Part shown: positions 13,135-29,460 of the stretch, piece after piece
How the letters are laid out: each line of letters begins with the position of its first letter
Numbering within the stretch: position 1 is the stretch's first letter
Assembly (NCBI RefSeq): GCF_040513375.1
Contig: NZ_JBEVTG010000001.1
Span: 952,244-1,016,243 of the forward strand
DNA from: Flagellimonas algarum
Lineage (GTDB): Bacteria; Bacteroidota; Bacteroidia; Flavobacteriales; Flavobacteriaceae
Length of the DNA: 64,000 nucleotides
Direction of reading: 5' to 3'
Translations under genes and position numbers: made by a program
Notes under the pieces: model-generated
The model's input: the letters and a program-made list of their open reading frames with translations, nothing else
Databases searched by the model: none
Told to the model about the DNA's origin: nothing

Positions 13135-13146
13135 CATCAAGCAGAA

Positions 13147-13175
13147 GCCCAGTGTTTTAGACACTGGGCTTTTTG
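13147..13175 (+). terminator. Rho-independent terminator after the tRNA
   Basis: Stem GCCCAGTGT / ACACTGGGC, loop TTTAG, followed by TTTTTG. Confidence 0.6.
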
Positions 13176-13302
13176 TGTTGCGAAAAGTCTGGGCAAACCC
13201 AAGGCTTTGAAGCAAAACATAAGGTTGTGCTTTGCGTTCGCAAAGTGCCAGCTTCTATTTGCGGTAGGGGGACTTCTCTGGTCCAAGAGCGGAGCGATCT
13301 AA

Positions 13303-13358
13303 CCCAGGTGGGACCACATCAAGCAGAAGCCCAGTGTCTAAAACACTGGGCTTTTTGT
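13303..13358 (+). repeat. 56-bp direct repeat of the tRNA 3' end plus terminator (first copy at 13121..13176). The hairpin loop is inverted in this second copy.
   Basis: cccaggtgggaccacatcaagcagaagcccagtgtNNNNNacactgggctttttgt occurs twice. The loop is TTTAG in copy 1 and CTAAA in copy 2; the two are exact reverse complements. Confidence 0.8.
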
Positions 13359-13448
13359 TTTTCTGGATTTGCCTACCCCAGCTAGGGATTTGGAAAAAAC
13401 GACTCCTATGGACATGGATGGGCCTTCGTTGTTTATTTTTTGACCGAA

Positions 13449-16400
13449 TCACTGAACCAATAGTCGCCCGCTATTCGAATTTCCGGAGAATTCAGGGGCA
13501 TACATACTTTGTATGGTGGCCAATCCAATTGCGAAATCACCGCGATTGTTGACCCTTAAATTGTATTCAAGGACATGGGACCCTTTTGGCAGATAATCAA
13601 AGAAAAAATGTGTCGCGACATCACGTGTTGATTGATAATACCTGAGTCTGCCTTGCCTTTTATGTCCTGAAAGGACGTCAATCGGTTCCAATCCAGAGGC
13701 GCGGAGGTCTTTTAAGTGCACGAATTCAATCGACTCGTTTGAACGGATTTCCAGTCGTACTTTGATCATATCACCCGGATTGAGTTCCATGTTTTTATGG
13801 ATTGGAACGAATCGAGTTCCTTGTGTTGAGACCTCTTCGAGAAAAAGTTGCTTATGAACGGTTAGGGGTCCTTTAGGTGAGGCTGAAAGGTTATCCAGCG
13901 TTTCAAAATACTGCCAATAAAAACCTCCTAAACCGGCAACCTTGCTTTTATTCTGAATTTCGACGACAGCCATTTCGGAATTTATTTCCTTCTTATTCCA
14001 TACCAATTTCAAATAACCTGTACCTGCTTCTTTTTGGGCATGCTCCGATGTCTTGCTTTGAACCTTTTGACCACCAATAGAAATAGTAGTATTATCCGAA
14101 ATCGACAACCAATCGCTTCCTTGCAACAAAAGGGCATAAATGGCTTCCGCGGTTGATTTGGTCGTTTCCCATTGATGCGTCTTTTTGTTTTTCAATAGCC
14201 ATAGTTTCATGGCATTGATGTTCTTGACCCCAGCACCTAATTCCGCAGCGGCTTCAATGATCAAGGCCTGGGTTTCGATCGGTGCACGTGACCAACGCCA
14301 TCCGGCCTTGTTTTCCTTCCAATACATTCCATTTTCTTTGCTATCCACCGCTTGTTCCACAATAGCGGACATGATTTTTTTTGAATGCCCACCATATCCG
14401 TGACGATTTAATATCAGTGCGATCATCGCTTTGTTGAACAAGGAAGTTTGATTCCAATCTTTTTTGAACACCTCCAGATAGGTTGATTGGATCGATTCCA
14501 ATTCTTCACTTATGGGATGGCTTTCCAAAAAGAAACTTCTTGCATAGAAATAGTGGATTTCATCGGACCTCAAACGTATGGAATGAATGTTCTTCTCTAG
14601 GCGTACATTGTGGTCTTTAATAAACCCGTTGTCCAAAAAGACCAAAGCGTTATTTAATAGGGACTGGATTTCATAGCTCTTTGCATCGACCACCTTAAGA
14701 TGCTGTAAGTGTCCGAAGCCCGCGACGATGTGTCTAGTAATAAATGTGTTTGCGGCGCCACCCGAAAACCAAGGAAAGCCCCCAGACTCCAATTGAAGTT
14801 CTTCAAGTTTGTTGATGGCCAAAGCGCGCTTCTCGAGAAGTGCGTTATTCTCAAAAAGGGCCCCTAGCTTGGCAAGATTTTCACTTTCATTTACGGCCTC
14901 CATGGCCCAAGGGCTTTCTTCTACCAAGATGCTTTTCAATTCTTGGTTTTTTTGCAATGGTGACTTTGACCCGTCCATCTTTTTCCAAGCCTCAAAAACT
15001 TCAGCAATTTTCGATTCATGTTCAATAATGTACTGGGTTATCGCATTCGCATAGAATTTAGAAAAAGTTTGTTCAGCACATTCGTATGGGAATTCAATGA
15101 GATAGGGCAATGATTTTATGGCCGACCAGGCCGGGTTTGAAGTATATTCTAAGATCAGCCGGTGGTTTTCCTTTGATGTAGGCCCCGTTCTTCCCAGTTG
15201 TTCGAATTCCACTTTTTTGATACTGTTCGGCAAAGCGAGGATAGGGGTCGATTGGGTGATCAGAACCTTATCGGATAGTACAGGCAGAATCGTGCTTTCA
15301 CCGTCACTTATCTTGCCGGCTGTTGCTACTACTTTGAATTCAATCGCATCAACATCCCGGGGAATACTTAATTTCCATGAGACATTGGTATCCCCGTTTG
15401 ATGGAATAACAAAGGGTTGGCTAGTATTTTTTTCGATGATCATCGCGTTCAACGGCATTCCGGTATTGGCATTAAAAAGCTGTAAGTTGATCGAACCCAC
15501 CTGCGATACGGAGGATAGATTTATAATTTTGGACGAAAACACCAAAGTGTCCCTTACCCGTAAGAATCGGGGGTAATTTGGTATGACATTAAGCTCTTTT
15601 TGGGTAATTGCCGTTCTTTCGAATTTTCCCAATTCAACCGCCTTGGTATGGGCCAACATCATGAAGCGCCATTTCGTCAAAGCTTGGGGCGAATCGAATT
15701 CCACACTAACGAAACCGTCTGAATCGGTCTCGAGGTTGGGATGAAAAAAAGCCGTTTCCTTGAGATTGGTTCTAGGTTCTATTTTTAAAGCTCGTTCAGC
15801 TCCTTTCTTGGTGGTGATCAGCACAACGCCATTCTTGCCCAAAGAGCCATATAGTTCGGTTGCAGCCGATCCCTTAATAACAGAGATATCTTCAATATCT
15901 TCCGTTTCAAGCAAGATTTCTTCGGCATTTCCCTCTTCGAATACGAAAGGAACACCATCCACAATGAACAATGCCCGATCGTTTGCATTTATACTGTTCA
16001 ATCCACGGATAACAACGCGCTTCGCCGTTCCGGAAGCTCCAGCTGCTTGGGTTATCGCTACCCCCGCCGCTTTACCCGAAAGCCCTCTTTCAATGGAATG
16101 GGAAATCCCATTCGCAGTAGTGTAATCCACGCTATATCCTAATGGGTAGGCGTCCCTTTTGATACCTTGTGCGGTAACCACTACTTCTTCGAGAGCAGAT
16201 GCATCTTCCGTCATAAGAACGTTGATCGTTTTTGATTTGGACACTAAAACCGATACATCTTTTTGACCGATGTAAGTAAAAATGAGCACCGAATTTTTTT
16301 TGGCATCTATGGTATAAAACCCATCGAAATCCGTTTGGGTACCGATCGATGTTCCATCGATATAAATATTCACCCCCGGCAGAGGCAAACCATCGCTATC

Positions 16401-19400
16401 CGTAACGATGCCTACGATCTTTCCCTTGGTGTCCACATAAGTCTTTTTCTCTTGCAGTATGGTTTTGAGATAAGCTTTTTGTCGGAATTCCGTATTGCTA
16501 AAATTCAACCCAAACCAATTTAATCGATAATGATTCTTTAGAAAATGGGAAACGTTGCCTTTGCGGGAATCCCAAAATTTATGGGTACGGGCCAACGAAA
16601 AGAAATAATGTTCGTTGATCCTAGGCACGAAAGAGCGTTTGTAATTCAAATATCCAACGCGATAGTCCCATTGGTGTTCCTTGAAAGCATCCAAAGAGGC
16701 ATCGTACATAGTAGCGAGCACTTCAGCTCGAGCCGGTTCTGCATCAGGACCGGAAATCTTAAATCTCCAAGTCTCTTTGTTTCCAGGGTCCAAACGATTT
16801 CGAAACGTTTGGGTCTCAAAAGTCAAACGCTGTGGGACATCGGGAAGCGCGACCGAAAAATCTTCGGCAAACACGGTGTTGTATTTAACGAAATGGATTT
16901 GGAAAAAGATTTTATCATTGAAATCAGCTGCGATAGGGATTTTTACATAGGATCCTTTCTTTCCAACCTGTACCAAGGTGTCAAGAATGACCTGACCATC
17001 GTATATGGCCTTTAAAAAGCTCTGGACACTATCGGCTTTTGAACTGAACAACAACTGGACGAAACCATCGGCTTTAAAGGCGCTGTTGATTATTTTGTAT
17101 TCGAAGATGTCTTGTGTGGAACGATGGGGTGCCAAGGGGTCGAATAGGTCGAAAATACGTTCGATCATCACGGTGTCCTTATGGCCATCATGGGCTTTAG
17201 CAACCATGGAATAGGATCCTGTTTTCCAATTATTTAAGACGGGTAATGGAACGCTTCCATTGCCTTCGATTTTCAATTTTGTACGGTAAACGACCTTGCC
17301 TTTTGTCCAGTTTTCTTTTAGATCGAGACTGTCATATGGTTCATTGGGGAACAGCTTGCGATACTGGTTTTTTTCCAGTATTTGGGCCGCGGGAATTCCC
17401 CACGGCTTTTTCCTAAAAACAAATCCCGGCTCTTGAAGTTCAAAAATCGAGACTTCGATTTCCGAGGCAATGGGCTCCCCGTTCAAGTTTTTCGAACTGA
17501 ACGAAATGGTCTGGGGTTCATCTTTTGCTATGGAAGAAGCTAGCCCCGTGCTGACCTCAAGGTTATGATAGCCTAAGCGAAGCGTGGTTTCGCCGGTTCT
17601 GGTTTCGCCATTCACATCAATTACATCAGCTTTGACGTTAAACTTGAAGACTGGTTGTTGAGTGGCCGAATAGGTTGAATCCGGCACTGCTAAAAACGAA
17701 ATCTCAAAACCCCCGTTCTTGTCCGTCTTTATGACCTTGTAATCGATCGGTTGGGTTTCTTGATCATATGACTGCGTTCCTAGAAAGGACTCTATCTTCC
17801 TTGTTATCGAATATTTGACTTCGCCGTTTTTTACCGGCGCTCCGAAGAACGCGATAGCACTTCCTTTTAGCTTTATCGAATCTCCCAAAACGTTGCTCTG
17901 GTTTCGCTTTTTGAAAGAAACTTCGAATCGAGGGCGCTTGTATTCTTCGACCATGAATTCAATTTCCGCCATTTCGAAATCATCAATTTTTTCCCAATAC
18001 GGGTCTTCGTCCTCGTCATCAGTACCATAGTCTTCATCCAATTCTATGGTGAATTCCCCAGTCGGCACATTCAATGGAATGTCATAATGGCCTTGGACTG
18101 ATCCATATTCGTTGGTTTTCAATCGGAATTCCTTTAAATCTTGGTAATTCGAATCGTAGATGAATACTGTCACCCATGTGTCAGGAACGGCACGGATCCG
18201 AGTTCCTATTTTCTCTGAAAGCAGCCCTTTGAAATATAAGGTTTGGCCTGGGCGATAGATGCTACGATCCAGAAAAAGAGAGAGTTTTGCCCAATGTTCT
18301 TCTTTTTTGTTTTCAATTACTTCAATCCGGTTTTGATATAGGCGATAATCACGTATGCGTATCGTGTCGGGCCCGCGGCTAGCCACTACATCAATGTATT
18401 TGGTTTCCTCCTTTGATCTGCTGACGGAATAACTTCCATAGGTGTCCGTCTCCCCGTTCTCAACTTTATCGAGATCATCAATTGAGATTTTGGCATTGAC
18501 TACCGGATGCCCGTGCTTTCGGTCGAGGACTTGGATTTTCAATTTATCCTCATTGTTGAATGACAGCATGGCCAATTCGGTGACCTGGATTTTTTGATAA
18601 CCGAAAATTTGTTCAGGCCGAATAGGATTTTCAACACCTGAGGCAACAAGGTGGTAATGACCAATGGGTAAAGGGTCAAAATCGATTTCCGTACTGGTTT
18701 GGAAAAAATCTTCACGGGGCGGCAGGCTATAAGACCGAGTAGCAATAGGCTTATCATTACGTAAACTTGCCAATAGGATACTGTCCCTTTCGCTCTTGTT
18801 TATCGACTCGTCAAAATCCTTTTGTATACGAATGACATTGATGAACAAGGAGTCAAGATTGCGATAATCGATCCTGGCCAAGAAAGGCTGATTTGGAATT
18901 TGATAATTCTCGGTTTCGATATCAACTTGCGGATTCTCGATTTTGTTTTTCAAGACCTTGGCCAAAAAGCCTCCGTCTGATGTCGGGTGCGCATCGCAAA
19001 TAGCCTCGCATAGGCGATGGGCTTCGATTCTATTTTTTGCAATGGAAGGATTCTTGGCCGGGTCTTTGTATTGACTTAATGAATAAAGTCGTTCGGCCAT
19101 CGCATAACCAATAGCGGCCGATGCAGGATGACTTTTGAATTCGCTGTATAAGTTCTCGAGCGTTACAAAATAACGTTGCTCCGCATCTTGCAAGGGGGAA
19201 TGCTGTCGAGAAAAACGAAGGCGTTCGAATAAAACCTCGATATAAGCCGTGCTATCGGAGTTTAAATGGAAGGCTTCGAGGCCTTGGTAAATTTTAAGTA
19301 CGGGGCGATACGAAAAAACACTGTCTGCAGTGGTAAATGGCGCGTTGACAAAATCCGTGGTTTTTGCAAAGATTTTGGCATCCGTAAGCAAGAACCGTTC

Positions 19401-20033
19401 CTTAGGCCTTTTGGAAACTTGAAACTTTTTTTTGTGGAAATTCAAGGCCCTGTGCGCAAGAAAATCGTATAAAGTCGGACGGAATTTTTTAGAGAACTTG
19501 CCTTCTGAAAGAATGGATGAAAATCGATTAATAGGAATTTGCTGAAGCTTATCTGCCTCTAAAATGGATAGGTGATACTGTTCACCGGTGTATGCGACCA
19601 AGGTGGCTAGGTCCCATTTTTCGAAATCCCACGAGTTGACCTCCCCGGAAAAAGTTGCTCGCCTCCAAAGCGAATATCGATTTTGGTCGAGATATTGTTC
19701 GAATAACCCCGCATAGAGGGATCGTAGTATGGCGTTCGTTGGAAAGGGTGATTTTTCGATTTGCGCCAATAGTTCTTTTAAAACCTGAATTCGGGCATCT
19801 TCTTCTAACAACAAAGCAAATTTCGATTTGTAAATAAAGGCTTTGACCACCTGATCGCTTTGGTTGTCGCGAATGCTTTTTTTTGCAATTTTGTCCACTA
19901 CGGCAGAAGCACTTTTGTATTTGCCTTCAATTTCGTGTCGTTCTGTTTTCTGCCAAAGCCTCTTATACGTGTTTTGACTTTTGACGAATTGGAATCCCAA
20001 AAGGAGAAAAAGGAGGAGAAGCACTTTTTTCAT
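13449..20033 (-). CDS. Alpha-2-macroglobulin-family protein, 2194 aa, with thioester motif and an embedded CarbopepD_reg/plug-like segment
   Basis: Signal peptide MKKVLLLLFLLLGFQFVKSQ. Thioester-region motif EFPYECAEQTFSKFY (compare ECAM PYGCLEQT). Multiple MG-like beta domains. Internal KIVGIVTDSDGLPLPGVNIYIDGTSIGTQTDFDGFYTI and VVTAQGIKRD...RGLNSINANDRALFIVDGVPF, which resemble a TonB plug. Confidence 0.8.
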   Translation of the reverse strand: MKKVLLLLFLLLGFQFVKSQNTYKRLWQKTERHEIEGKYKSASAVVDKIAKKSIRDNQSDQVVKAFIYKSKFALLLEEDARIQVLKELLAQIEKSPFPTNAILRSLYAGLFEQYLDQNRYSLWRRATFSGEVNSWDFEKWDLATLVAYTGEQYHLSILEADKLQQIPINRFSSILSEGKFSKKFRPTLYDFLAHRALNFHKKKFQVSKRPKERFLLTDAKIFAKTTDFVNAPFTTADSVFSYRPVLKIYQGLEAFHLNSDSTAYIEVLFERLRFSRQHSPLQDAEQRYFVTLENLYSEFKSHPASAAIGYAMAERLYSLSQYKDPAKNPSIAKNRIEAHRLCEAICDAHPTSDGGFLAKVLKNKIENPQVDIETENYQIPNQPFLARIDYRNLDSLFINVIRIQKDFDESINKSERDSILLASLRNDKPIATRSYSLPPREDFFQTSTEIDFDPLPIGHYHLVASGVENPIRPEQIFGYQKIQVTELAMLSFNNEDKLKIQVLDRKHGHPVVNAKISIDDLDKVENGETDTYGSYSVSRSKEETKYIDVVASRGPDTIRIRDYRLYQNRIEVIENKKEEHWAKLSLFLDRSIYRPGQTLYFKGLLSEKIGTRIRAVPDTWVTVFIYDSNYQDLKEFRLKTNEYGSVQGHYDIPLNVPTGEFTIELDEDYGTDDEDEDPYWEKIDDFEMAEIEFMVEEYKRPRFEVSFKKRNQSNVLGDSIKLKGSAIAFFGAPVKNGEVKYSITRKIESFLGTQSYDQETQPIDYKVIKTDKNGGFEISFLAVPDSTYSATQQPVFKFNVKADVIDVNGETRTGETTLRLGYHNLEVSTGLASSIAKDEPQTISFSSKNLNGEPIASEIEVSIFELQEPGFVFRKKPWGIPAAQILEKNQYRKLFPNEPYDSLDLKENWTKGKVVYRTKLKIEGNGSVPLPVLNNWKTGSYSMVAKAHDGHKDTVMIERIFDLFDPLAPHRSTQDIFEYKIINSAFKADGFVQLLFSSKADSVQSFLKAIYDGQVILDTLVQVGKKGSYVKIPIAADFNDKIFFQIHFVKYNTVFAEDFSVALPDVPQRLTFETQTFRNRLDPGNKETWRFKISGPDAEPARAEVLATMYDASLDAFKEHQWDYRVGYLNYKRSFVPRINEHYFFSLARTHKFWDSRKGNVSHFLKNHYRLNWFGLNFSNTEFRQKAYLKTILQEKKTYVDTKGKIVGIVTDSDGLPLPGVNIYIDGTSIGTQTDFDGFYTIDAKKNSVLIFTYIGQKDVSVLVSKSKTINVLMTEDASALEEVVVTAQGIKRDAYPLGYSVDYTTANGISHSIERGLSGKAAGVAITQAAGASGTAKRVVIRGLNSINANDRALFIVDGVPFVFEEGNAEEILLETEDIEDISVIKGSAATELYGSLGKNGVVLITTKKGAERALKIEPRTNLKETAFFHPNLETDSDGFVSVEFDSPQALTKWRFMMLAHTKAVELGKFERTAITQKELNVIPNYPRFLRVRDTLVFSSKIINLSSVSQVGSINLQLFNANTGMPLNAMIIEKNTSQPFVIPSNGDTNVSWKLSIPRDVDAIEFKVVATAGKISDGESTILPVLSDKVLITQSTPILALPNSIKKVEFEQLGRTGPTSKENHRLILEYTSNPAWSAIKSLPYLIEFPYECAEQTFSKFYANAITQYIIEHESKIAEVFEAWKKMDGSKSPLQKNQELKSILVEESPWAMEAVNESENLAKLGALFENNALLEKRALAINKLEELQLESGGFPWFSGGAANTFITRHIVAGFGHLQHLKVVDAKSYEIQSLLNNALVFLDNGFIKDHNVRLEKNIHSIRLRSDEIHYFYARSFFLESHPISEELESIQSTYLEVFKKDWNQTSLFNKAMIALILNRHGYGGHSKKIMSAIVEQAVDSKENGMYWKENKAGWRWSRAPIETQALIIEAAAELGAGVKNINAMKLWLLKNKKTHQWETTKSTAEAIYALLLQGSDWLSISDNTTISIGGQKVQSKTSEHAQKEAGTGYLKLVWNKKEINSEMAVVEIQNKSKVAGLGGFYWQYFETLDNLSASPKGPLTVHKQLFLEEVSTQGTRFVPIHKNMELNPGDMIKVRLEIRSNESIEFVHLKDLRASGLEPIDVLSGHKRQGRLRYYQSTRDVATHFFFDYLPKGSHVLEYNLRVNNRGDFAIGLATIQSMYAPEFSGNSNSGRLLVQ

Positions 20034-20216
20034 GGCGGTCGGTTTTTACCTAAGTACTGAAGTTACGCACTCCTTTTCAAACACCAATGAGCCAATGGCC
20101 TGCTCTGTTGAGGGAAGCATGGGTTTAGGTGGGCCACCTCCATTTGCGTTCAAAAACCGGAAATCGGGTGTAGGATCTTTGGGCAATCGTATCAAGTCGT
20201 TCCCCAAGTGAAACCC

Positions 20217-20224
20217 TATATTTG
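20217..20224 (+). promoter_or_regulatory. -7 box TATATTTG, overlapped by a near-palindrome TGTGTATCAATAACACA (20223..20239) that is a candidate NrtR operator
   Basis: The TAnnTTTG consensus lies ~20 nt upstream of the ATG at 20246. The imperfect inverted repeat TGTGTAT-CAA-TAACACA overlaps the box. Confidence 0.35.
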
Positions 20225-20245
20225 TGTATCAATAACACATATTGC

Positions 20246-20917
20246 ATGGATGCGATTAAACTAACGGTAGACGCAGTGGTGTTCGGATATGACTCCGGAA
20301 AAATATCGGTGCTTTTAGTGAAAAGAAAATATGAGCCGTTTAAAAATGAATGGGCCATTCCAGGAGGTTTTGTATTGGAAAATGAAAACTTGGAGCAAGC
20401 TGTTGAAAGGGAACTGGCCGAAGAGACAGGGGTCAAAATAAACTACCTTGAACAATTATATACCTTCGGAGGGCTTGGGAGGGATCCTAGGGGAAGGGTC
20501 GTTTCCATCGCTTATTTTGGGTTGGTAAAGCCCAATGCATTTAGGTTGACCCCTTCTACGGATGCCAAGGAAGCCGAATGGTTCAATATCGATACGCTTC
20601 CCAAATTGGCATTTGACCATAAGCATATCTTGAAGACTGCCATTGAAAGACTTCGTGGAAAAATCACCTATGAACCGATTGGGTTTGAATTACTCGATAA
20701 GAAGTTTCCTTTCTCCGATTTGGAAAAACTGTATACCACGCTTTTGAACCGGGAAATCGACCGAAGGAATTTCAAAAAGAAAATCAATAGCTTGAAAGTC
20801 TTGGACGAGTTGGATGAAAAGGTTTCCACTGGGCGAGGAAGACCTGCAAGCCTTTTTAGCTTCAATAAAAAGCGCTATTTCCAGTTAAAAAAAGAGGGTA
20901 TTATCTTCGAAATCTGA
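20246..20917 (+). CDS. nrtR: NrtR-family regulator (N-terminal Nudix ADP-ribose-binding domain plus C-terminal winged helix). The track start at 20222 is a TTG; the likely start is the ATG at 20246.
   Basis: Nudix box GGFVLENENLEQAVERELAEETGV. C-terminal FPFSDLEKLYTTLLNREIDRRNFKKKINSLKVL matches the NrtR wHTH signature (..LyE.iL...lD.rNFrrK..). Confidence 0.7.
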   Translation: MDAIKLTVDAVVFGYDSGKISVLLVKRKYEPFKNEWAIPGGFVLENENLEQAVERELAEETGVKINYLEQLYTFGGLGRDPRGRVVSIAYFGLVKPNAFRLTPSTDAKEAEWFNIDTLPKLAFDHKHILKTAIERLRGKITYEPIGFELLDKKFPFSDLEKLYTTLLNREIDRRNFKKKINSLKVLDELDEKVSTGRGRPASLFSFNKKRYFQLKKEGIIFEI

Positions 20918-20992
20918 TGCTGGCTTATTCCACATAAAAATAATTTGCGTAAAAAAAACACAAAATATCTTGTGAGGTTCAAAAACACAATT

Positions 20993-21000
20993 TATATTTG
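20993..21000 (+). promoter_or_regulatory. -7 box TATATTTG within an imperfect ~30-bp direct repeat (ATTTGCGTAA...ACACAAAATA, twice)
   Basis: 20941..20970 versus 20995..21026 share the ATTTGCGTAA and ACACAAAATA blocks. 40 nt upstream of the SPFH gene ATG. Confidence 0.3.
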
Positions 21001-21039
21001 CGTAATAAATACACAAAATAATCTTAAAAACCAGTCGTT

Positions 21040-22056
21040 ATGTTCGGAATAAACTACATCAAATTCGATTCCATGAATTATGTCATCCATTTTAAAAATG
21101 GAAAAACTAAAAAGGAAGGGCGAGGACTTTCTTTCTTTTACTTTGCCCCGAACTCCTCCATAGTTTCCATTCCCATGGAGAGTAAAGACTTTCAATTCAT
21201 TTTTAAAGAGACCACCAAAGACTACCAAGAAGTTTCCATTCAAGGTCAGATTACTTATAAAGTAAAAGACCCAAAACAATTGGCCGAGGTTCTTGACTTC
21301 ACTGTTGACAGTAAAGGGTACTATATCAAAGATGACAATGAGAAAATCCAACAGCGCATCATCAATGAGGCCCAAACGGCAAGTGCCGGGGTTATACAAA
21401 AGTTAAGTCTTAAAGAAGCGTTACGTCAATTACAGCAGATAGAAACGCAGATCATGGAGAGTGTTCAAAACTCTAAAACCGTACATATGCTTGGTCTTGA
21501 AATATTGAGCGTAAACGTTTTGGGTGTCACCCCAAACCCTGAAATGGCCAGAGCATTGGAGGCCCAGATGCGGGAATCACTTCAAAAGGAAGCGGATCAG
21601 GCCATTTATGAGCGAAGAAATTTTGCCGTTGAACAAGAGCGCATCATCAAGGAAACGGAACTGAATACGGAAATCGCTGTCGAAGAAAAACAGAAACAAA
21701 TCGCTGAAAAGCAAATGGAAACCGAATTAGTGAAGCAAGAAAATGAGCAAAAACTCAAAGAAATGGATATGGCGTCCAACATCTCTTTGGAGGATAGCAA
21801 ACAGCAACTAATCGACCTTAGGGTCGAAAACGAAAAGAAGGAAGCAGATGCTAAAGAGTATGTATTGCATGCCAATCTTCGCCCTTATAAGGAATTGGAT
21901 TGGAAGACGCTTATGGCCATTAATTCCAAAGGTATCGACCCAAGGAATCACATTGCCCTTGCTTTTAGGGAATTGGCCGAGAATGCGGACAAAATAGGTA
22001 ATCTCAATATTTCTCCGGATTTATTGGAGGCTATCATGAGCACAAAGACCGCCTAG
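21040..22056 (+). CDS. SPFH/band-7 domain protein (soluble, no N-terminal TM) with a C-terminal coiled-coil
   Basis: The first 150 aa fit the beta-rich SPFH core (...VSIPMESKDFQFIFKETTKDYQEVSIQGQITYKV...). Residues 180-270 are a Glu/Lys/Gln-rich heptad coiled-coil. Confidence 0.55.
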   Translation: MFGINYIKFDSMNYVIHFKNGKTKKEGRGLSFFYFAPNSSIVSIPMESKDFQFIFKETTKDYQEVSIQGQITYKVKDPKQLAEVLDFTVDSKGYYIKDDNEKIQQRIINEAQTASAGVIQKLSLKEALRQLQQIETQIMESVQNSKTVHMLGLEILSVNVLGVTPNPEMARALEAQMRESLQKEADQAIYERRNFAVEQERIIKETELNTEIAVEEKQKQIAEKQMETELVKQENEQKLKEMDMASNISLEDSKQQLIDLRVENEKKEADAKEYVLHANLRPYKELDWKTLMAINSKGIDPRNHIALAFRELAENADKIGNLNISPDLLEAIMSTKTA

Positions 22057-22057
22057 T

Positions 22058-22981
22058 ATGGAATTGGAAAAGATCATCATTGTTAGGGATAAAACAAGGC
22101 TTGAGCAACTCGTAGAACGGTTTAATTCAAAGGCCCAAGCCAAGTTTTACCTCGAACGCTCCGGAGAGGATTTTGGTTTTTACGAACAAGAGCACAACAC
22201 CTTTTATGCATCACTTGAGCAGGTTCAAAAAACAATTTCCCCTTTGTTCAAGAGTAAGGTGCTGTTCCGTTCTTATTTATCGACCTACATGTTCGCTGAA
22301 GGGGATTTGATCGTGGTCCTCGGTCAAGATGGCTTGGTTGCCAATACCGCCAAATATGTAAACGGACTTCCTATAGTAGCCGTTAATCCGGACGAAGAAC
22401 GTTATGATGGTGTTCTGTTGCCCCATGGTCCGCAAACATTGTTGCCGGCTATTAAAGGCGTTCTTAATGGGACCTATGAATCAAAAAGAGTGACCATGGC
22501 CAAAGCTACCATGAACGATGGGCAAACATTATTGGCCTTCAATGATTTCTATATAGGTGCATCATCGCATGTTTCGTCCCGATATAACCTTGAATTCAAG
22601 GGAAAAAGGGAAAGTCAATCCTCTAGCGGTATTTTGGTTGCTACGGGTGCGGGCTCAACAGGGTGGATCAGCTCTGTCTTTAATATGACCAATAACATCA
22701 ACCAGCATTTTCATAAACAAAAAAACGCGTTCACGGCTGGGTTGGAATGGGAAGACGAACAATTGCTGTTCGTGGTGAGGGAACCTTTTTTAAGTAAAAT
22801 GTCCCAAATAGATTTAGGGTGCGGGATCATAACGAAAAATACACGACTAAAAATCGAATCCAAGATGCCTCAAAACGGAGTTGTTTTTAGTGATGGTATC
22901 GAAGCTGACTTTTTGAACTTTAATTCAGGAAATACACTTAGTATCGGAATCGCCGATGAAAAGGCAAATTTGATTATTTAA
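22058..22981 (+). CDS. NAD-kinase-fold protein (PpnK/diacylglycerol-kinase catalytic superfamily)
   Basis: GDLIVVLGQDGLVAN (compare the GGDGT motif), NDFYIGASSH (compare NE.....) and SGILVATGAGSTGWISSV (compare DGlivSTPTGSTAYslSAGGP). Overlaps the upstream gene by 1 nt. Confidence 0.55.
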   Translation: MELEKIIIVRDKTRLEQLVERFNSKAQAKFYLERSGEDFGFYEQEHNTFYASLEQVQKTISPLFKSKVLFRSYLSTYMFAEGDLIVVLGQDGLVANTAKYVNGLPIVAVNPDEERYDGVLLPHGPQTLLPAIKGVLNGTYESKRVTMAKATMNDGQTLLAFNDFYIGASSHVSSRYNLEFKGKRESQSSSGILVATGAGSTGWISSVFNMTNNINQHFHKQKNAFTAGLEWEDEQLLFVVREPFLSKMSQIDLGCGIITKNTRLKIESKMPQNGVVFSDGIEADFLNFNSGNTLSIGIADEKANLII

Positions 22982-22982
22982 A

Positions 22983-23936
22983 ATGGGGAGAATCAAAAAT
23001 GGTATAATTGGTTTGGCTATTGGGGATGCCCTTGGAGTCCCTGTAGAATTTATTTCCCGTGAAGAATTGAATGCTTCTCCTGTTATGGATATGATTGCCT
23101 TTGGGACACATGATCAGCCCTTGGGCACCTGGTCTGATGACACTTCATTGACGCTTTGCATGTGTGAAGCCCTATTAGAGGGCTTTGACTTGACCAGGAT
23201 TGCCAAGAATTTTATTTTTTGGAAGTACGGTATGTTTTGGACCCCCCATGGGTCTGTTTTTGACATCGGTATCCAAACAAGCAAATCAATAGACAAATTG
23301 AGCAAGGTCATCCAATCTGAACAGTTGGAAGATCTACGATTACTACGATATGAAGCGGATGAGTTCTCCAATGGGAATGGCTCATTAATGCGAATCCTTC
23401 CTTTATATTTTTATTTGAAAGGATCGTCGGTGGAGGGTGATTTTCAACTCATTTGGGAGGTCTCCGCGTTGACACATGGGCATATTCGTTCAGCACTTGC
23501 CTGTATGTTTTATTTGATGATGGTCGATGAATTGGTCCTAGGAAATACGAAAACGGAATCGTATGTAAAGGCCAAAGAACGAATGAACGTGTTTTTTGAA
23601 GTTCGTGATATTGCCGAAAGGGAAATCCGTGTTTTCGACCGAATTGTTTTAAACGATATTAGGGATTTGGAACGTAAAGAAATCCAATCCTCAGGATACG
23701 TCATACATAGTCTCGAGGCGGCTTTGTGGTGCTTTTTGAAAACCGATAGCTTCAAGGAATGTGTGTTAAAAGCAGTCAATCTTGGTGAAGACACCGATAC
23801 TGTTGGCGCTATTGCAGGCGGCCTTGCAGGGGTATACTACGGCGAGCGGAACATTCCGAAAAAATGGATGGATAATTTGGTAAAAATCGACCAGATAAAG
23901 GCATTGTGCGGGCAATTGGAAGCGTATTGGTCTTAA
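22983..23936 (+). CDS. ADP-ribosylglycohydrolase family protein
   Basis: N-terminal GIIGLAIGDALGVPVEF and C-terminal NLGEDTDTVGAIAGGLAGVYYG, the ARH Mg-binding motifs. Confidence 0.8.
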   Translation: MGRIKNGIIGLAIGDALGVPVEFISREELNASPVMDMIAFGTHDQPLGTWSDDTSLTLCMCEALLEGFDLTRIAKNFIFWKYGMFWTPHGSVFDIGIQTSKSIDKLSKVIQSEQLEDLRLLRYEADEFSNGNGSLMRILPLYFYLKGSSVEGDFQLIWEVSALTHGHIRSALACMFYLMMVDELVLGNTKTESYVKAKERMNVFFEVRDIAEREIRVFDRIVLNDIRDLERKEIQSSGYVIHSLEAALWCFLKTDSFKECVLKAVNLGEDTDTVGAIAGGLAGVYYGERNIPKKWMDNLVKIDQIKALCGQLEAYWS

Positions 23937-23979
23937 ATTGATTTCAAACGAAAAACCGCCCCTTGACCAAGGGCGGCTT

Positions 23980-24549: not shown

Positions 24550-25267
24550 GCTTGTTTTGAAATCGTCTCGAAATGGCTATATCCGCCGGATATAAAAAAT
24601 CCGAAACATCCTATTGGATTGCCTCGGATCTTCTTAAGGGCTAAGACCCTACAGGAAAGAACCGAAGCAACGGTATTGATCGTTCATCGATCAATCGGCT
24701 TTTAAAACTGGTCTGATGTAAAAGCATCGCTTCGTTTTTATTTGTTTGAAATTCGTGTTGTCGTGTTTCGTTCGACGGGCAAATATGGGGGCTATTTCTG
24801 GATTATGCAAGAAAAAATCGAATTTAAATTATTGATAATCAGTGAATTAAGTTTAAAAAAGGCATAGGGGGTCCCGGTCCGCTTTTCAGCGGATTTTCAA
24901 CATGATACAATCGCCTGTCCCTCAATCGTTTTCTGTTTCAACTATCCGGTATATGTCATTTTACTTTTCTTGCATTCGTTTTAAAATTTTTCATAAAAAA
25001 AGCGCCCAATTGGTGTAGGACGCTTCGTTATGGTATCAAAATCGGTTTTAAATCAATGTATAAATCCATTTAAACCGGACACATCACGTCCTTTTCGCGA
25101 GGATAATTCGATTATCCAGCGATAGTCCACCTGACTGAACAGGTCTTTTGGGATGCTATGTACTCCAGTATTTTTCATTTGCATTGCAAAGATGCAAAAA
25201 TCCCTGGATTTCCAAGAGATTGCAAAGAATATCGCTATTCGGGATGGATGTGGCGCCGTCTAATGAC

Positions 25268-28063
25268 CTACGAGTATAAGAAGCTCCGTAGTTGTGTCAG
25301 CACACCTTCTTGGTCAAAATACCAATCGGCGAACGAGAGCGGGAAGACCTTGATCTGGGCACGGTTCAGGATGCGGATTCGCTCCACACTAAGCGCGTGG
25401 ACAAAGTCACCCGGATACCCGATCAAATCAATGGCGTAGTACCCTTTTTCGGTTTGGATCAATAGATCCAGGGTGATGTCGGCGATCCGATAGCCTTCCC
25501 AAAATTGGACCATAGCTTCTTTGGGCAAATGGTCTTGGATCTGCTTCAGGAAGAAATCCCGTTCCAGTCCTTGGGCGTGCGGTTTCGAAACGCTTTTTTC
25601 TTTTCCATACACCAAAAATTTTCGCAGCAGACTCCCAGGACGAAAATCCTTTGGATTGCCCGAATGATACACATACTGCCCATGTCTGGCCCGTGTCACC
25701 GATACATTGAAGACATCCGCCTTGTTCAAATGGCCATGGGCCGAATGATGGGTGGCCCCATCTACGACCAACGAAAGGAACATCAGGTCACGCTCTTCGC
25801 CTTGAAAGGCGTAAGGGGTGCCGACCTTGAACCGATGGCGCTCGAGGGTTTCGACCTCGAAACGATCGAATAGCGCCTCCGAAAGATGATCGACCTGACT
25901 TCTAAAAGGCGATAGGATTCCGATTGAAGTGACCAACGAAGGGTCCCACTCGGCCTCTTGGGCGACCCGCTCCCCCACATCCCGCAGCAAACGTTCGGCT
26001 TCGATGCTGTTGACGCCTTGCGCATCCCGGCTGCCATCACAAGGAATGAGGTAAAGCGACCGTTCGTCACGACCCGGCTTATGGGTCATCAAACGCAGTT
26101 CGTTGTTGTAGAATTCGCGATTGCTGAACCCGATGATCTGGGGCAGACTGCGGTAATGCTCGTCGAGCATGGCTACTTGCGATCGGCGTTGTAGGCTGTT
26201 GATGGCAAGGTCGAGAATGCTATGGTCACGGTAGTTCAACAAAAAGGGATCTACTGCTTGCAACCCCAGTTTTTGTTGCAATTGGAATTGTACGTTCTTC
26301 GATAAGAACGAGATATGGCGCAGTTGGTTCGGGTCACCGGCGAACACCACCCTTTTGGCGCGTTGTAAGGCCGGCAGACAAGAAGCGATATCGCACTGGG
26401 TCGCCTCATCGATGATCACCACATCGAACAGTCCGTTGATCAAGGGCACCTTGTCCTTCACTTCGGAAAGGTTGATCAACCATATCGGGAAGGCCTTTAA
26501 AACGCAATCGAAGTCTATTTTTTCAAAGATGGCGATGCGCTCCGTATCGCTATGGGTGTTCAGTGCCCGGTAGAATTCATTGAAATCGCCCCAATGGTCG
26601 TGCATGACCTTGAGCAGGTTCAAAATGTAGTTCCATTTTAAGAACTCCTTGGTCTTCTTGACCGAATCGCCGTCTTTGGTCCGGATTTCCGACACGATTT
26701 CATGCAGCGCTTCCTGAAAAGGCAGTTTGTTGACCAGTTGCAACCATAGCGACTTGAGGTCATCCCACAGCTTGGATTCCTTTTGGCTCAAAAAATCGCT
26801 TTTCGCTTGTTCCCCCTCCAAAACCGCCGCGTAATCTTGCTCCAATCCCTGGGTCTCCCGCTTGATTTTTTGCAATTGACGATGGAGTGATTCGATAAAA
26901 TCGCGGAGCTTACCGATATCATCGAACCCATTGTGCTCTTCGAATTCTTTATGTAAAAACCGCATGGGAGAAGCACTGACCAACATCGATTTAATGAAAC
27001 GCCGCACTTTGGTGACGTGTTTTCGTTTTCGACCGCCCCTGATGATACAGTGTTCGAAACCCAGCTGCCCGTTGATCTTTTCTGCCACGACATCGACCGC
27101 CTCATCGGTTCTCGAGACGACCAATACCGATTCGCCCCGACTCATATGTTCAAGGGCAATGGCCGAAATGGTATAGGTCTTCCCGGTTCCCGGCGGACCG
27201 ACGATCAGGGTGGTCGGATGGGTAGCTGCCGAAATCAAAAGGCTTTTCTGGGCTTTGCTCAGCACCGTGGGTACGTAGCCCATCACCGCTTCGGGTGTTG
27301 CGGGCAACGATTTTGCCGAGCGCTCGAAGAGGGTGGTATAGGGGCTTGAAAAGGTAGAGGCGGCACCCAGTTGTTTCAGTTCGTTGAGCACCCCACGGGT
27401 CTGTTTTGACTTTTCGACGATACCCATGACACTGAAGGGCAAGATCTGATAGCTATTCTCGGTCCCTTTTAGTTTTCGCAATCGATACCGTATTTGCCCA
27501 AGGCTGAGGTTGTTCGGATAGCCCAATAATTCTTGGGCCTCGATATCGGGATGGTGTTTTTCGAACAAGGCGATCAATTGGCCGACATGCTCGAAGCGAA
27601 ACGGGCCACTGGGCAACGCCTTAAGCAGGGCGTTTTGGAAATTGTCGGTTTCATCGGCACTGGCCAAGAGCTGTAACAACGGATAGTTGAGTCGGCGTGA
27701 TTGCAGGTCGATCCGGGCAAAATAAAACCCGTCGTTCTGTTCTACGCGAATATCATGGTAGAGCAAAGGGGCGCAAAGGGCCTGTGATTTTCCCCGAAAA
27801 TCGACATAGGTGCCACACACAAAGAGGGCTCCATGAACCAGTTCTTTTTCCTTTTCGAACAGTTTTGCGTTTTTCAGTAACAGCTCGCCCTGTTCGTTGG
27901 GAATGGGCACAATGGGATAGGTGCCGTTGATCAGTTCTTCTTCTTCGAAAAAGACTTTATGGGCGACCTTGGGTTTGAGAAAGTCCATGATGCTGATCGA
28001 TCGGTTGTCGGCCAGATAGCAATCATGGAAGTAGTTGGCGATGTTGGCGAGATTCCCTGTCAT
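25268..28063 (-). CDS. Superfamily-1 (Upf1/DNA2-like) helicase with a C-terminal Vsr/DUF559-like PD-(D/E)xK nuclease-fold domain
   Basis: Walker A LIVGPPGTGKTYTI. Walker B/motif II VVIIDEATQ. Motif VI VFNVSVTRAR. C-terminus YRIADITLDLLIQTEKGYYAIDLIGYPGDF...ERIRILNRAQIKVFPLSFADWY resembles DUF559 (yivDF...IEvDG..H...D..Rd..L...G..vlRf). Confidence 0.7.
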   Translation of the reverse strand: MTGNLANIANYFHDCYLADNRSISIMDFLKPKVAHKVFFEEEELINGTYPIVPIPNEQGELLLKNAKLFEKEKELVHGALFVCGTYVDFRGKSQALCAPLLYHDIRVEQNDGFYFARIDLQSRRLNYPLLQLLASADETDNFQNALLKALPSGPFRFEHVGQLIALFEKHHPDIEAQELLGYPNNLSLGQIRYRLRKLKGTENSYQILPFSVMGIVEKSKQTRGVLNELKQLGAASTFSSPYTTLFERSAKSLPATPEAVMGYVPTVLSKAQKSLLISAATHPTTLIVGPPGTGKTYTISAIALEHMSRGESVLVVSRTDEAVDVVAEKINGQLGFEHCIIRGGRKRKHVTKVRRFIKSMLVSASPMRFLHKEFEEHNGFDDIGKLRDFIESLHRQLQKIKRETQGLEQDYAAVLEGEQAKSDFLSQKESKLWDDLKSLWLQLVNKLPFQEALHEIVSEIRTKDGDSVKKTKEFLKWNYILNLLKVMHDHWGDFNEFYRALNTHSDTERIAIFEKIDFDCVLKAFPIWLINLSEVKDKVPLINGLFDVVIIDEATQCDIASCLPALQRAKRVVFAGDPNQLRHISFLSKNVQFQLQQKLGLQAVDPFLLNYRDHSILDLAINSLQRRSQVAMLDEHYRSLPQIIGFSNREFYNNELRLMTHKPGRDERSLYLIPCDGSRDAQGVNSIEAERLLRDVGERVAQEAEWDPSLVTSIGILSPFRSQVDHLSEALFDRFEVETLERHRFKVGTPYAFQGEERDLMFLSLVVDGATHHSAHGHLNKADVFNVSVTRARHGQYVYHSGNPKDFRPGSLLRKFLVYGKEKSVSKPHAQGLERDFFLKQIQDHLPKEAMVQFWEGYRIADITLDLLIQTEKGYYAIDLIGYPGDFVHALSVERIRILNRAQIKVFPLSFADWYFDQEGVLTQLRSFLYS

Positions 28064-28081
28064 GCGCTTTGGTGGGCGGTC

Positions 28082-28840
28082 TTATCGCAGCATTTCATGA
28101 AGTTTCTGCACGTCTTGGTGCACCAGGGTCAACCGTCCTTCGATCATATCCGAAAAGTCCGGGATGCGGTGACAGAACACCTGCCGAATTTCCCAGAGCT
28201 CCTTGATGGCCGAAACGGGCATTACGATATCGACGATGTTCTTATGGTCCGTTTTCAGCGTGATTTCACCCGACGAAAAGAAAAACCGCCTGAAGATGAG
28301 CGCTTCGGCAGTGACTACCACACAATACGCCCCTTTTTCCACTTTCTTGAAATCCTTTTTGGTTACAGCTTCCCCGATAATGATGTCCTTGGGGTAAAAG
28401 CCCCGGTCCAGATGGGTCATCTCAAGGTTTTGGACTTCGAAAGCCCGCGAAGAATCCGGCCGATCCACAGGCAATTGAAGTTTGGGAAGGCCTTTGAGAA
28501 AAGCCTCGTCTTCATACGAAAAAGGATAGTCCGAAATATAGGTGCCCGTGACACAACCGATTTCTGGAAAACGGTCGTTTACGATCTTGGTCGAGTCAGT
28601 GGTCAGGTCCGCTTTGAATTTCAAGAGCTCATTGACCGTAAGTTCGTTGGTCAAGAGGTCGTCGATCGTGATACTAAAATAATTAGCAATTTTGATAATC
28701 GTATCGATTTTCGGTTCACTTCGCTGCTCTTCATAGGCTCCCAGAGTCGCACGTTTCAGGTCGAAAATCTCTGAAAAGGCCTGTTGGCTCATGTTCTGGA
28801 CACTACGGATTTTCTTGATGTTCTTGCCGAAGAAAGACAT
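28082..28840 (-). CDS. XRE-family HTH regulator with a C-terminal LexA/S24-peptidase-like domain (catalytic Ser/Lys apparently not conserved)
   Basis: HTH: IKKIRSVQNMSQQAFSEIFDLKRATLGAYE. The C-terminal ~110 aa (..EVQNLEMTHLDRGFYPKDIIIGEAV...AYCVVVTAEALIFRRFFFSSGEITLKTDHKN..) follows the S24 beta-fold pattern, but has EMT where GDSM is expected and R where the general-base Lys is expected. The 18-nt gap to the helicase gene suggests co-transcription. Confidence 0.65.
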   Translation of the reverse strand: MSFFGKNIKKIRSVQNMSQQAFSEIFDLKRATLGAYEEQRSEPKIDTIIKIANYFSITIDDLLTNELTVNELLKFKADLTTDSTKIVNDRFPEIGCVTGTYISDYPFSYEDEAFLKGLPKLQLPVDRPDSSRAFEVQNLEMTHLDRGFYPKDIIIGEAVTKKDFKKVEKGAYCVVVTAEALIFRRFFFSSGEITLKTDHKNIVDIVMPVSAIKELWEIRQVFCHRIPDFSDMIEGRLTLVHQDVQKLHEMLR

Positions 28841-28852
28841 AATTTGCTAATA

Positions 28853-28866
28853 ATATTTGCAAATAT
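28853..28866. promoter_or_regulatory. Perfect 14-bp palindrome ATATTTGCAAATAT in the divergent promoter region, flanked by ATTTGC half-sites. Candidate operator for the adjacent HTH regulator.
   Basis: The sequence is self-complementary. Additional ATTTGC repeats lie at 28843..28848 and 28875..28880. Located 13 nt upstream of the regulator ATG. Confidence 0.5.
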
Positions 28867-29062
28867 GAAAATTATTTGCTATGTTTGTTAGGTAAATATA
28901 GCAATTTATGTGGTCGCGACCCGTTATTTTGCTGAAAAAAATAGACATTTTACAAATTTAGCTATGATTTTTAGCCATTTTATATGGATGGATTCATGAA
29001 AAGGCAGTAATTTATAGCTTCATTTGAGAGCGACAGTATAAACAGAAACCAGCCCAAAACGC

Positions 29063-29458
29063 ATGGAAGATAATTTTCAAAAGGTCAAAGCATATCTACA
29101 ACAATTGGATCTCGATATCGCCACTGAAAACCAGGAGGAAGGTATTTTGGTCATCAATAAGGAACAAGAAGGTATCAAAAACCTGATCTTAGGGGTATTT
29201 ACCCCCATATTGATCATCGAGCAGCACATTTTCGATATCGCCCAAGGCGATGCCAAAATCTATAAGGAGCTCCTCAAAAAGAACAGGGATATCGTGCATG
29301 GGGCTTTCGTACTCGATGAATCCGGTGAAAAAGTAATCTTTAGGGACACCCTCAGATTGCAACACTTGGATCTCGACGAACTCGAGGGATCCTTAAATTC
29401 CTTAAGCCTATTGCTAAGTGAATATGCCGATCAAATTATAAACTATTCAAAACAATAA
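29063..29458 (+). CDS. YbjN-domain-like protein (putative sensory-transduction/T3SS-chaperone-like fold)
   Basis: 131 aa, acidic, with a two-half alpha/beta pattern (..EGILVINKEQEGIKNLILGVF... / ..IVHGAFVLDESGEKVIFRDTL..). Sits immediately upstream of PspA (3-nt gap), as in yjfI-yjfJ-type operons. Confidence 0.45.
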   Translation: MEDNFQKVKAYLQQLDLDIATENQEEGILVINKEQEGIKNLILGVFTPILIIEQHIFDIAQGDAKIYKELLKKNRDIVHGAFVLDESGEKVIFRDTLRLQHLDLDELEGSLNSLSLLLSEYADQIINYSKQ

Positions 29459-29460
29459 AC

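Follow-up and report, generated by a model that had tools for sequence, protein, structure and literature searches.

A predicted two-promoter NrtR-family regulon in Flagellimonas algarum combines an SPFH protein and an NADK2-like kinase with an ADP-ribosylglycohydrolase

A 64,000-nucleotide (nt) stretch of the Flagellimonas algarum genome (contig NZ_JBEVTG010000001.1), referred to in its entirety as the window, contains four same-strand genes at 20.2–23.9 kb. They encode an NrtR-family regulator (nrtR), an SPFH/Band 7 protein, an NAD-kinase-like (NADK-like) protein and an ADP-ribosylglycohydrolase (ARH). For the NADK-like protein and the ARH, counterparts with 100% identity are known from Flagellimonas sp. 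DF-77 / F. algarum. Copies of a 21-base-pair (bp) palindrome lie at both promoters of this segment, tandem copies recur wherever nrtR accompanies the SPFH and NADK-like genes in relatives, and the genes recruited under this operator in those relatives are overwhelmingly ADP-ribose and NAD enzymes. We consider it fairly probable that the four genes form a two-promoter regulon under an NrtR-family repressor that is induced by ADP-ribose and answers NAD+ consumption or ADP-ribosylation stress. The gene identities given in a preliminary description of this DNA, among them two downstream genes with NAD or ADP-ribose chemistry (the NAD-kinase-type protein and the ARH), were all upheld by domain, profile and fold searches.

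The palindrome, TTTGYGT-N7-ACRCAAA, has three matches with at most one mismatch in the 64 kb, against 0.08 expected, and 0 of 100 shuffles reached three sites. One of these, O_R, is the near-palindrome over the nrtR −7 box to which the preliminary description had drawn attention; the overlap is real, and an alternative TTG start of nrtR at 20222 falls within the same site. Two further copies that were absent from that description, O1 and O2, bracket the SPFH promoter at a spacing of 53 bp (Table 1). The −7 consensus of Bacteroidetes promoters is TAnnTTTG. Since the 122-nt gap between nrtR and the SPFH gene contains a predicted promoter of its own, the segment probably comprises two transcription units. 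Further downstream the genes are packed as tightly as had been claimed, with gaps of 1 nt between the SPFH and NADK-like genes and 1 nt between the NADK-like and ARH genes. NrtR (Rodionov et al., 2008; PMC2330246) and AraR typically use 21-bp operators, frequently arranged in tandem, and the geometry found here is that which would be expected from autorepression plus cooperative promoter occlusion.

Relatives were sampled at one genome per species, which gave 80 loci with NADK-like relatives at 52–90% identity (L-numbers are labels of loci in relatives). nrtR lies upstream in 35 of the 80, which come from marine Flavobacteriaceae, Cytophagales and a few unclassified Bacteroidia metagenome-assembled genomes (MAGs). 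All 35 have tandem sites upstream of the SPFH gene, 52–56 bp apart (53–54 bp in nearly all), and in most of them a third site precedes the gene that leads the nrtR transcription unit; where Macro(-NADAR)-ARH genes precede nrtR, the third site is placed ahead of them. The other 45 loci, from Chitinophagales, Sphingobacteriales, Methylococcales, a Blastocatellia MAG and others, have no adjacent nrtR, and a site was found in only 5 of about 43 such loci. For the 35 loci examined from L040 on (mostly without adjacent nrtR, although L042 has it), a search for an alternative operator revealed only ordinary Bacteroidetes promoters. This distribution, as read from sequence comparison, shows that the 21-bp sites co-evolve with nrtR, and the earlier proposal of an NrtR-headed regulon agrees with it.

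Same-strand accessory genes surround the core, in shuffled order, in 18 of the 35 nrtR loci versus 3 of the 45 others. Their products include Macro proteins of the YmdB/MacroD and ALC1/SCO6735 types, NADAR, ARH, Tpt1/KptA and DUF4291 proteins, a 2-oxoglutarate (2OG)-Fe(II) oxygenase and a calcineurin-like phosphoesterase (Metallophos), the last found among relatives only in L005 and L081. DUF4291 has recently been predicted to be ADP-ribosyltransferase (ART)-like (PMC12522546). The set varies among each of the four closest relatives, L001–L004, of which L001 and L003 are Croceivirga MAGs and L002 is Flagellimonas sp. S174. A conserved 138-residue accessory protein (cluster C6; L001 8459–8875 and seven other loci) has the invariant pattern LYRP.GLKEL...FPPRL.WQPIFYPV.NE.YA.EIA.KWNT and no match in Pfam, NCBIfam or PDB. 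In L011 (4935–8180), genes for NAMPT and a PRS-like phosphoribosyltransferase follow the NADK-like gene in the same operon, with an ARH gene in between; we take this pairing to resemble the prs-nadV genes of classical NrtR regulons and the NAD-reconstitution pair of phage NARP1.

A Winogradskyella MAG carries an nrtR-SPFH-kinase locus without accessory genes (L028) and, 1.8 Mb away, an 11-gene operon (L081, 3623–12372) behind tandem NrtR-type operators 52 bp apart. In this operon, a 421-residue gene without a significant Pfam domain is followed by genes for Macro, microbial poly(ADP-ribose) glycohydrolase (PARG), DUF4291, ARH, metallo-β-lactamase (MBL)-fold, ARH, Tpt1, 2OG-Fe(II) oxygenase, SIR2 and Metallophos proteins. 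Judged by its predicted operators and gene content, this remote operon is direct evidence of an ADP-ribose-themed regulon.

Table 1. Genes, predicted operators and transcription signals of the four-gene segment (window coordinates)
Feature	Position	Strand	Basis or remark
nrtR, NrtR-family regulator, 223 aa	20246..20917	+	best start ATG 20246
SPFH/Band 7 protein, 338 aa, probable nrtX	21040..22056	+	Pfam Band_7 8e-20
NAD-kinase-family protein, NADK2-like branch, 307 aa, probable nrtY	22058..22981	+	profile and fold searches
ADP-ribosylglycohydrolase, 317 aa, DraG/Tri1/Lmo0067-like	22983..23936	+	Pfam ADP_ribosyl_GH PF03747 1e-71
Operator O_R (TTTGTGTATCAATAACACATA), predicted autoregulatory NrtR site	20221..20241		one mismatch to consensus
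Operator O1 (TTTGCGTAAAAAAAACACAAA), just upstream of SPFH promoter −33/−35 region	20944..20964		exact match
Operator O2 (TTTGCGTAATAAATACACAAA), over SPFH −7 box and probable transcription start	20997..21017		exact match
nrtR −7 element TAtaTTTG, Bacteroidetes type	20217..20224	+	sequence; overlaps O_R left arm
SPFH promoter: TTGTGA 20970–20975, 17-nt spacer, TATATT/TAtaTTTG 20993–21000	20970..21000	+	consensus match only
GC-rich hairpin, probable bidirectional terminator between convergent ARH and TPR (tetratricopeptide repeat) genes	23956..23976		sequence; terminator scan, minus strand

The regulator consists of an N-terminal Nudix domain and a C-terminal winged helix (Pfam NUDIX, 1e-21, and NrtR_WHD, 7e-22, both over gathering scores), with an additional Pfam AraR_C match (1e-15). 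Its Nudix box is complete (GX5EX7REUXEEXGU), so that the clear box and NrtR-type winged helix reported earlier are both present. The box is intact in 36 of 36 orthologues from the comparison of relatives but not in BtAraR, nor in the proteobacterial orthologues, where it is degenerate. Among solved structures, BtAraR (5bs6, 1e-49) and Shewanella NrtR (3gz5, 3e-33) are closest, each in a full-length alignment. The NCBIfam model 'ADPR responsive transcriptional repressor NtrR' (NF050029; ADPR, ADP-ribose) matches at 7e-44 with 150 bits, below its cutoff of 400, and by these scores the protein is classed as an NrtR-family member and not as the NF050029 equivalog.

With the NrtR proteins of Shewanella oneidensis and Synechocystis, the window regulator shares the two-domain architecture and the 21-bp palindromic operators, often in tandem. 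ADP-ribose relieves repression by those two proteins in vitro and is the effector of characterized NrtRs (PMC2330246); their Nudix signature is perturbed, and no ADP-ribose pyrophosphatase activity was found. Their targets are prs-nadV, nadM, nadE and others, whereas those in the window are the SPFH, NADK-like and ARH genes. The preliminary description contrasted the segment with the usual NAD-biosynthesis regulons of NrtR; such content is not entirely new to the literature, as units of the nrtR-draG and nrtR<>nrtX-nrtY types were already listed in 2008.

The SPFH gene lies directly upstream of the NADK-like gene in all 78 loci where the contig permits the test, with a gap of −11 to +8 nt in 74 of them, and the two genes are probably translationally coupled. 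Of the 35 nrtR loci, 10 include an ARH gene, placed either ahead of nrtR or farther downstream by several genes; it stands directly after the kinase gene only in the window. ARH is a lineage-variable accessory, and the conserved core consists of NrtR, SPFH and NADK-like proteins.

The SPFH protein scores 72 bits against a Band_7 cutoff of 23.6 and is 60–100% identical across orders. In its AlphaFold (AF2) model, an SPFH domain (residues 13–165) is followed by a helix of about 80 residues (167–245), and Foldseek matches to the model include erlin, stomatin, HflK/C, prohibitin, flotillin and major vault protein (MVP). A long coiled-coil helix after the SPFH domain is typical of ring- or cage-forming members of the family. 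Since the Kyte-Doolittle(19) score peaks at 1.24, the protein appears to have no transmembrane segment or membrane anchor and is predicted to be soluble. SPFH-NfeD operons (E. coli QmcA-YbbJ, HflK/C) share with the pair described here the SPFH domain, the long coiled-coil helix and the tight two-gene arrangement. They differ in that the window protein lacks the N-terminal anchor and the NfeD or protease partner typical of bacterial members; its constant partner is a nucleotide-kinase-like enzyme.

The NADK-like protein had no Pfam match at E<0.01 and matched NCBIfam NAD kinase models weakly (6e-6; best 25.6 bits against a cutoff of 316). A profile built from ten homologues recovered human mitochondrial NADK2 as the best PDB match (3e-8), followed by bacterial NAD kinases. 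The AF2 model has a predicted local distance difference test (pLDDT) score of 70; its top 50 Foldseek matches were all NAD(H) kinases, with E-values down to 2e-16, and both the best template modelling (TM) score (0.68) and the best coverage were obtained against NADK2. No diacylglycerol kinase (DAGK) or sphingosine kinase was among the 50 matches listed, and the choice between these classes that the preliminary description had left to be made falls on the NAD-kinase type. Identity to solved NAD kinases is 17–23% for Foldseek ranks 1–25, and 10–11% for Listeria NADK1, lower in the list.

The family to which this protein belongs is large (229 clusters at 50% identity, E<1e-30). Where canonical NAD kinases have GGDG(T/N), the window protein has GQDGL; among 97 full-length members, position 2 of the motif is mostly Q or P, with G never among the commonest residues, and the Asp of G-x-D-G is retained in 90. 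An N-[DE] motif and an E-x-Q-SSSG...T-G-x-G-S-T-G-W loop are conserved throughout these members. NADK2 (PDB 7r4j/7n29) and NadK/PpnK share the two-domain NAD-kinase fold, the catalytic Asp of G-x-D-G and the N-[DE] motif, and the SSSG...TGxGS.xW loop is similar to that of NADK2. Set against this are the replacement of GGDG by G(Q/P)DG, low identity, sub-cutoff scores and the constant SPFH gene partner. The fold match together with the G(Q/P)DG signature argues for a distinct NADK2-like branch.

The pair extends well beyond the Bacteroidota. Proteobacterial NADK-like homologues, 41–47% identical, reside on large replicons, and in Providencia, Moraxella, Rhizobium, Ralstonia and Proteus mirabilis a regulator with NUDIX and NrtR_WHD domains is divergent from an SPFH-NADK-like gene pair. 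The Kitasatospora pair has another neighbor, a divergent gene that is unclassified. Rodionov et al. (2008; NAR 36:2047; PMC2330246) described in P. mirabilis an nrtR gene divergent from nrtX-nrtY, two genes of unknown function, with a predicted NrtR site. In their grouping by motif, the Proteus regulator falls with the ADP-ribose-responsive Shewanella NrtR, and they listed nrtR<>nrtX-nrtY units also in Hahella, Streptomyces (nrtR2), Kineococcus and Frankia. From the shared species and architecture, we infer an SPFH protein as the product of nrtX and an NADK-like protein as that of nrtY; the P. mirabilis regulator, SPFH and NADK-like proteins are 36%, 39% and 44% identical to those of the window. 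The window differs from these units in that nrtR is co-directional, with its own promoter that is predicted to be autoregulated, and in its intact Nudix box, tandem operators and appended ARH. On comparative grounds, then, NrtR, SPFH and NADK2-like proteins appear to form an ancient cross-phylum module, nrtR-nrtX-nrtY. In the literature searched, no paper linked NrtR with SPFH, none combined SPFH, NAD kinase and operon, and no relevant use of nrtX was found.

In some of these genomes the NADK-like gene adjoins antibiotic resistance genes. A tetR-tet(H)/tet(J) tetracycline-resistance module comes immediately after it in Moraxella and Proteus (L085, L088, L091), small Pasteurellaceae and Psychrobacter plasmids (hits H37–H40) carry only 3′ fragments of it, and on pAST2 and a Moraxella plasmid a full-length copy abuts tetR(H). 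This pattern suggests that the resistance module was mobilized from a chromosomal context of this kind.

The ARH matches PF03747 over profile positions 2–286 of 287 (242 bits), and its PDB matches are Listeria Lmo0067 (8za7, 2.5e-73), Serratia Tri1 (6dre, 1.7e-39) and DraG. Its translation contains WSDDTS and GEDTDTVG stretches, whose SDDT and DTDT parts are presumably the (di-)metal-binding motifs of the family. The protein falls below the equivalog cutoffs for Tri1 (169 bits against 490) and DraG (134 against 337); by these scores it is related to arginine-specific DraG/Tri1, but a substrate is not assignable. Its nearest homologues, at 60–64% identity, are ARHs of the same regulon in relatives. 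The literature searched contained nothing on Lmo0067.

In the model we favor, dimers of the regulator would bind the three palindromes, as their conservation suggests. Occupation of O_R, which lies over the nrtR −7 box, would lead to autorepression. O1 and O2, spaced so as to fall on the same helix face, would close the SPFH promoter between them, with O2 occluding the −7 box and start, probably cooperatively. NAD+ cleavage or removal of ADP-ribosyl marks would raise free ADP-ribose or a close derivative, and binding of ADP-ribose to the Nudix domain would release the repressor from DNA, by analogy with the Shewanella and Synechocystis proteins. Since the Nudix box is fully intact, the regulator probably also hydrolyzes its inducer, which would self-limit induction. 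The output would be the coupled SPFH and NADK2-like pair plus ARH. ARH would strip ADP-ribose from modified proteins, probably at arginine, and since this would free ADP-ribose, more of it may reach the sensor in a feed-forward manner. The NADK-like enzyme would most likely 2′-phosphorylate NAD(H) or a nucleotide of the ADP-ribose type, and an oligomer of the SPFH protein would act as its scaffold or regulator.

Several points weigh against this model. The nearest solved relative of the regulator is the arabinose-responsive BtAraR, not an ADP-ribose-responsive NrtR, so its ligand could differ from ADP-ribose, and for this clade both the ligand and the mode of DNA binding are modeled from sequence comparison and analogy. 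The NADK-like protein lacks the canonical GGDG and falls under the Pfam and NCBIfam NADK thresholds, and NAD+ may not be its substrate. Moreover, conversion of NAD+ to NADP+ during NAD+ depletion would not be obviously adaptive. Finally, the 45 loci without an adjacent nrtR hold the SPFH-kinase pair without ADP-ribose genes (but an accessory gene in 3 of them), so the function of the pair is not strictly dependent on the regulator.

Could the locus instead be a conflict system, that is, an immune or counter-toxin device? Nudix-helix-turn-helix (HTH) regulators beside ADP-ribosylglycohydrolase (ARG) genes were discussed by Iyer, Burroughs and Aravind (2022; PMC9503650), and on their template an ARG-centered operon would be held off by a Nudix-HTH repressor, induced by ADP-ribose from phage or toxin ADP-ribosyltransferases or NADases, and charged with erasing foreign ADP-ribosylation. 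ADP-ribose has been proposed as the inducer both in these systems (PMC9503650, section 3.8) and in the nrtR1-draG-SCO1765 unit of Streptomyces (Rodionov et al., 2008; PMC2330246), and all have in common with the window a Nudix-HTH regulator coupled to an ADP-ribosylglycohydrolase. The window, with both partners and no ART, fits here; it also holds no coupled sirtuin. The accessory set differs across L001–L004, indicating rapid turnover, and same-strand defense genes come directly after the NADK-like gene in three relatives: a short prokaryotic Argonaute (Piwi) and SIR2_2 pair (L017 8022–11001), a 1273-residue STAND/NACHT NTPase (L002 8317–12138) and a 1116-residue CHAT protein (L020 8758–12108). 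A superfamily 1 (SF1) helicase with MkoA/MkoC-like matches lies 1.3 kb from the segment.

We nonetheless judge this explanation unlikely. The core is strongly conserved, as the SPFH identities show, and its GC content at third codon positions (GC3) tracks the host. Of the 35 nrtR loci, 25 lack ARG, which is therefore not the center of systems of the window type; in these, ARG is optional and the core is SPFH plus NADK-like. The published systems, which were described from actinobacteria, planctomycetes and proteobacteria and have Nudix-HTH or WYL regulators, place ARG at the center with phosphatase and chaperone partners, yet the window has no coupled phosphatase (rhodanese-phosphatase, calcineurin-like, HD or HAD) and no peptide-binding chaperone. 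The template also excludes writers, whereas in relatives predicted ones (Tpt1, DUF4291, SIR2) are found behind this very operator. In its main text, PMC9503650 nowhere uses the terms SPFH, NAD kinase or NADK. In a profile scan of the four proteins against PADLOC-DB 2.0, SPFH, NADK-like and ARH had no match, and the regulator gave only a generic Nudix match (PDC-S07, 6e-10). Homologues of the NADK-like protein were likewise absent from phage collections (IMG/VR by pattern scan, INPHARED by tblastn), and a phage-borne counter-defense origin of its gene was dropped. The connection to phage defense drawn in the preliminary description is, on these results, speculative.

A second possibility shifts the emphasis to the pair itself. 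The SPFH and NADK2-like proteins might constitute an NrtR-controlled cross-phylum response module to NAD+ cleavage, turned on by ADP-ribose, in which NAD+, ADP-ribose or an ADP-ribose-derived signal would be 2′-phosphorylated on or in a soluble SPFH assembly. Such a module might protect the pyridine-nucleotide pool against NADase toxins and immune effectors, or else neutralize what these produce; in the marine Flavobacteriia, a variable set of ADP-ribosylation writers and erasers would have gathered around it. We regard this version as quite unlikely.

Decidedly improbable, in our estimate, is a housekeeping role in NAD(P) homeostasis, in which NrtR would gauge NAD turnover by ADP-ribose and use a second NAD kinase to tune the flux from NAD to NADP, ARH and SPFH being incidental. 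Classical NrtR regulons do control NAD synthesis and salvage (PMC2330246), the NAD-kinase fold is clear, and NAMPT and PRS-like genes are part of the L011 operon. However, the window and 34 of the 35 nrtR loci contain no NAD biosynthesis or salvage genes, GGDG is altered throughout the NADK-like family, and the strict, probably coupled, cross-phylum pairing with SPFH and the accessory set would be left unexplained. Least probable by far is a regulator of the AraR/XylR type, from the Bacteroidetes branch of NrtR, that responds to sugars or pentose phosphates and has no link to ADP-ribose: the closest solved structure is arabinose-binding BtAraR and the Bacteroidetes members of the family described to date control pentose use, but the Nudix box that is degenerate in AraR is fully intact here, the targets under the operator are NAD/ADP-ribose enzymes with no sugar-utilization genes, and the proteobacterial SPFH/NADK-like pair is under NrtRs of the Shewanella motif group.

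The preliminary description had also taken the segment to be AT-rich and hence possibly acquired. The low GC3 is real: the four genes have values of 0.438–0.464, against a mean of 0.606 (standard deviation 0.048) for 35 other open reading frames (ORFs) of the window (z −3.0 to −3.5). A neighboring alpha-2-macroglobulin (A2M)-like gene has a GC3 of 0.456 and, with the four operon genes, makes up a contiguous block of the five lowest among 40 ORFs; since the block takes in this gene, low GC is not specific to the operon and does not show acquisition. In most relatives the core GC3 tracks that of the host and neighbors. No other locus departs as strongly as the window does; it is closest to relatives of lower GC, and its SPFH gene is 91% identical to lower-GC relatives at the DNA level. 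Since SPFH is extremely conserved everywhere, this identity is not decisive for recent transfer; the segment may plausibly have been replaced through recombination with DNA of a lower-GC relative. Of the two findings named in advance as unfavorable to the earlier proposal, base composition like that of the flanks was not observed, but NADK-like genes without an adjacent nrtR were, in 45 of the 80 loci.

The A2M-like gene (13449–20033, minus strand, 6.6 kb) encodes a 2194-residue secreted protein (MG2, A2M and bMG10 domains) with CarboxypepD_reg and TonB Plug domains inserted mid-protein; it shares just 49% identity with its syntenic counterpart in relatives from Croceivirga and Flagellimonas. 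On its left, the low-GC block is bordered by a tRNA-Met gene (13061–13135), the only Rfam match in a scan of 12.9–25.4 kb. The final 20 nt of this gene and the following terminator hairpin are repeated at 91% identity 182 bp on (13116–13179 versus 13298–13361), which could be a remnant attachment (att)-like duplication or a decayed second tRNA copy. This is the only repeat of the tRNA-Met 3′ end; the right edge of the block has none, so that no att-bounded island could be recognized.

To the right of the operon, the 718-nt spacer between the TPR and helicase genes (24550–25267) has no Rfam match and no ORF longer than 43 residues except one of 93 residues (25158–25439), mostly antisense inside the helicase gene. 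The 931-residue SF1 helicase, which opens the group at 25268–30177, matches the PADLOC MkoA/MkoC models (Mokosh-like, 2e-37) and NCBIfam PLuB/ProA. It is followed by genes for an HTH_19 protein (28082–28840), a CesT_Tir_1 protein (29063–29458) and PspA/IM30 (29461–30177). This group adjoining the operon may be a defense or stress cluster. Farther away (50653–62810, minus strand), five successive same-strand ORFs of 786–804 residues resemble a tandem paralogue array. The variable accessory region of the relatives from Maribacter, Croceivirga and Flagellimonas ends with another SPFH/Band 7 gene, unrelated to the first and on the opposite strand (about 367 residues; cluster C8, L001–L010; for example, L001 8910–10016, minus strand); the window has no such gene.

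For the connection of ADP-ribose with NAD synthesis, NrtR regulons are the textbook example. NrtR regulons that include nrtX-nrtY and nrtR-draG were already known. What is new is the identification of the pair as a soluble SPFH protein and an NADK2-like kinase, from Bacteroidota to Alpha-, Beta- and Gammaproteobacteria; the Bacteroidota architecture, with its co-directional nrtR, intact Nudix box and tandem operators; and the accretion of ADP-ribosylation enzymes, the ARH of the window included. nrtX-nrtY is a recurrent NrtR target pair to which, in the literature searched, no function has been assigned since 2008. In Flavobacteriia and Cytophagales, the same operator also gathers genes for ARH, Macro, PARG, NADAR, Tpt1, DUF4291, SIR2 and NAMPT. 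The system would offer an entry point into bacterial ADP-ribose signaling, with a defined predicted operator, a probable inducer and NAD kinases of a branch akin to the mitochondrial enzyme; it also pairs an SPFH scaffold with a metabolic enzyme, which is rarely seen. Among tractable hosts, Proteus mirabilis and Rhizobium, R. etli included, carry the module. Should ADP-ribose-type nucleotides prove to be substrates of the kinase, NAD/ADP-ribose metabolism would gain a new reaction, one that would be relevant to NAD-depleting immunity.

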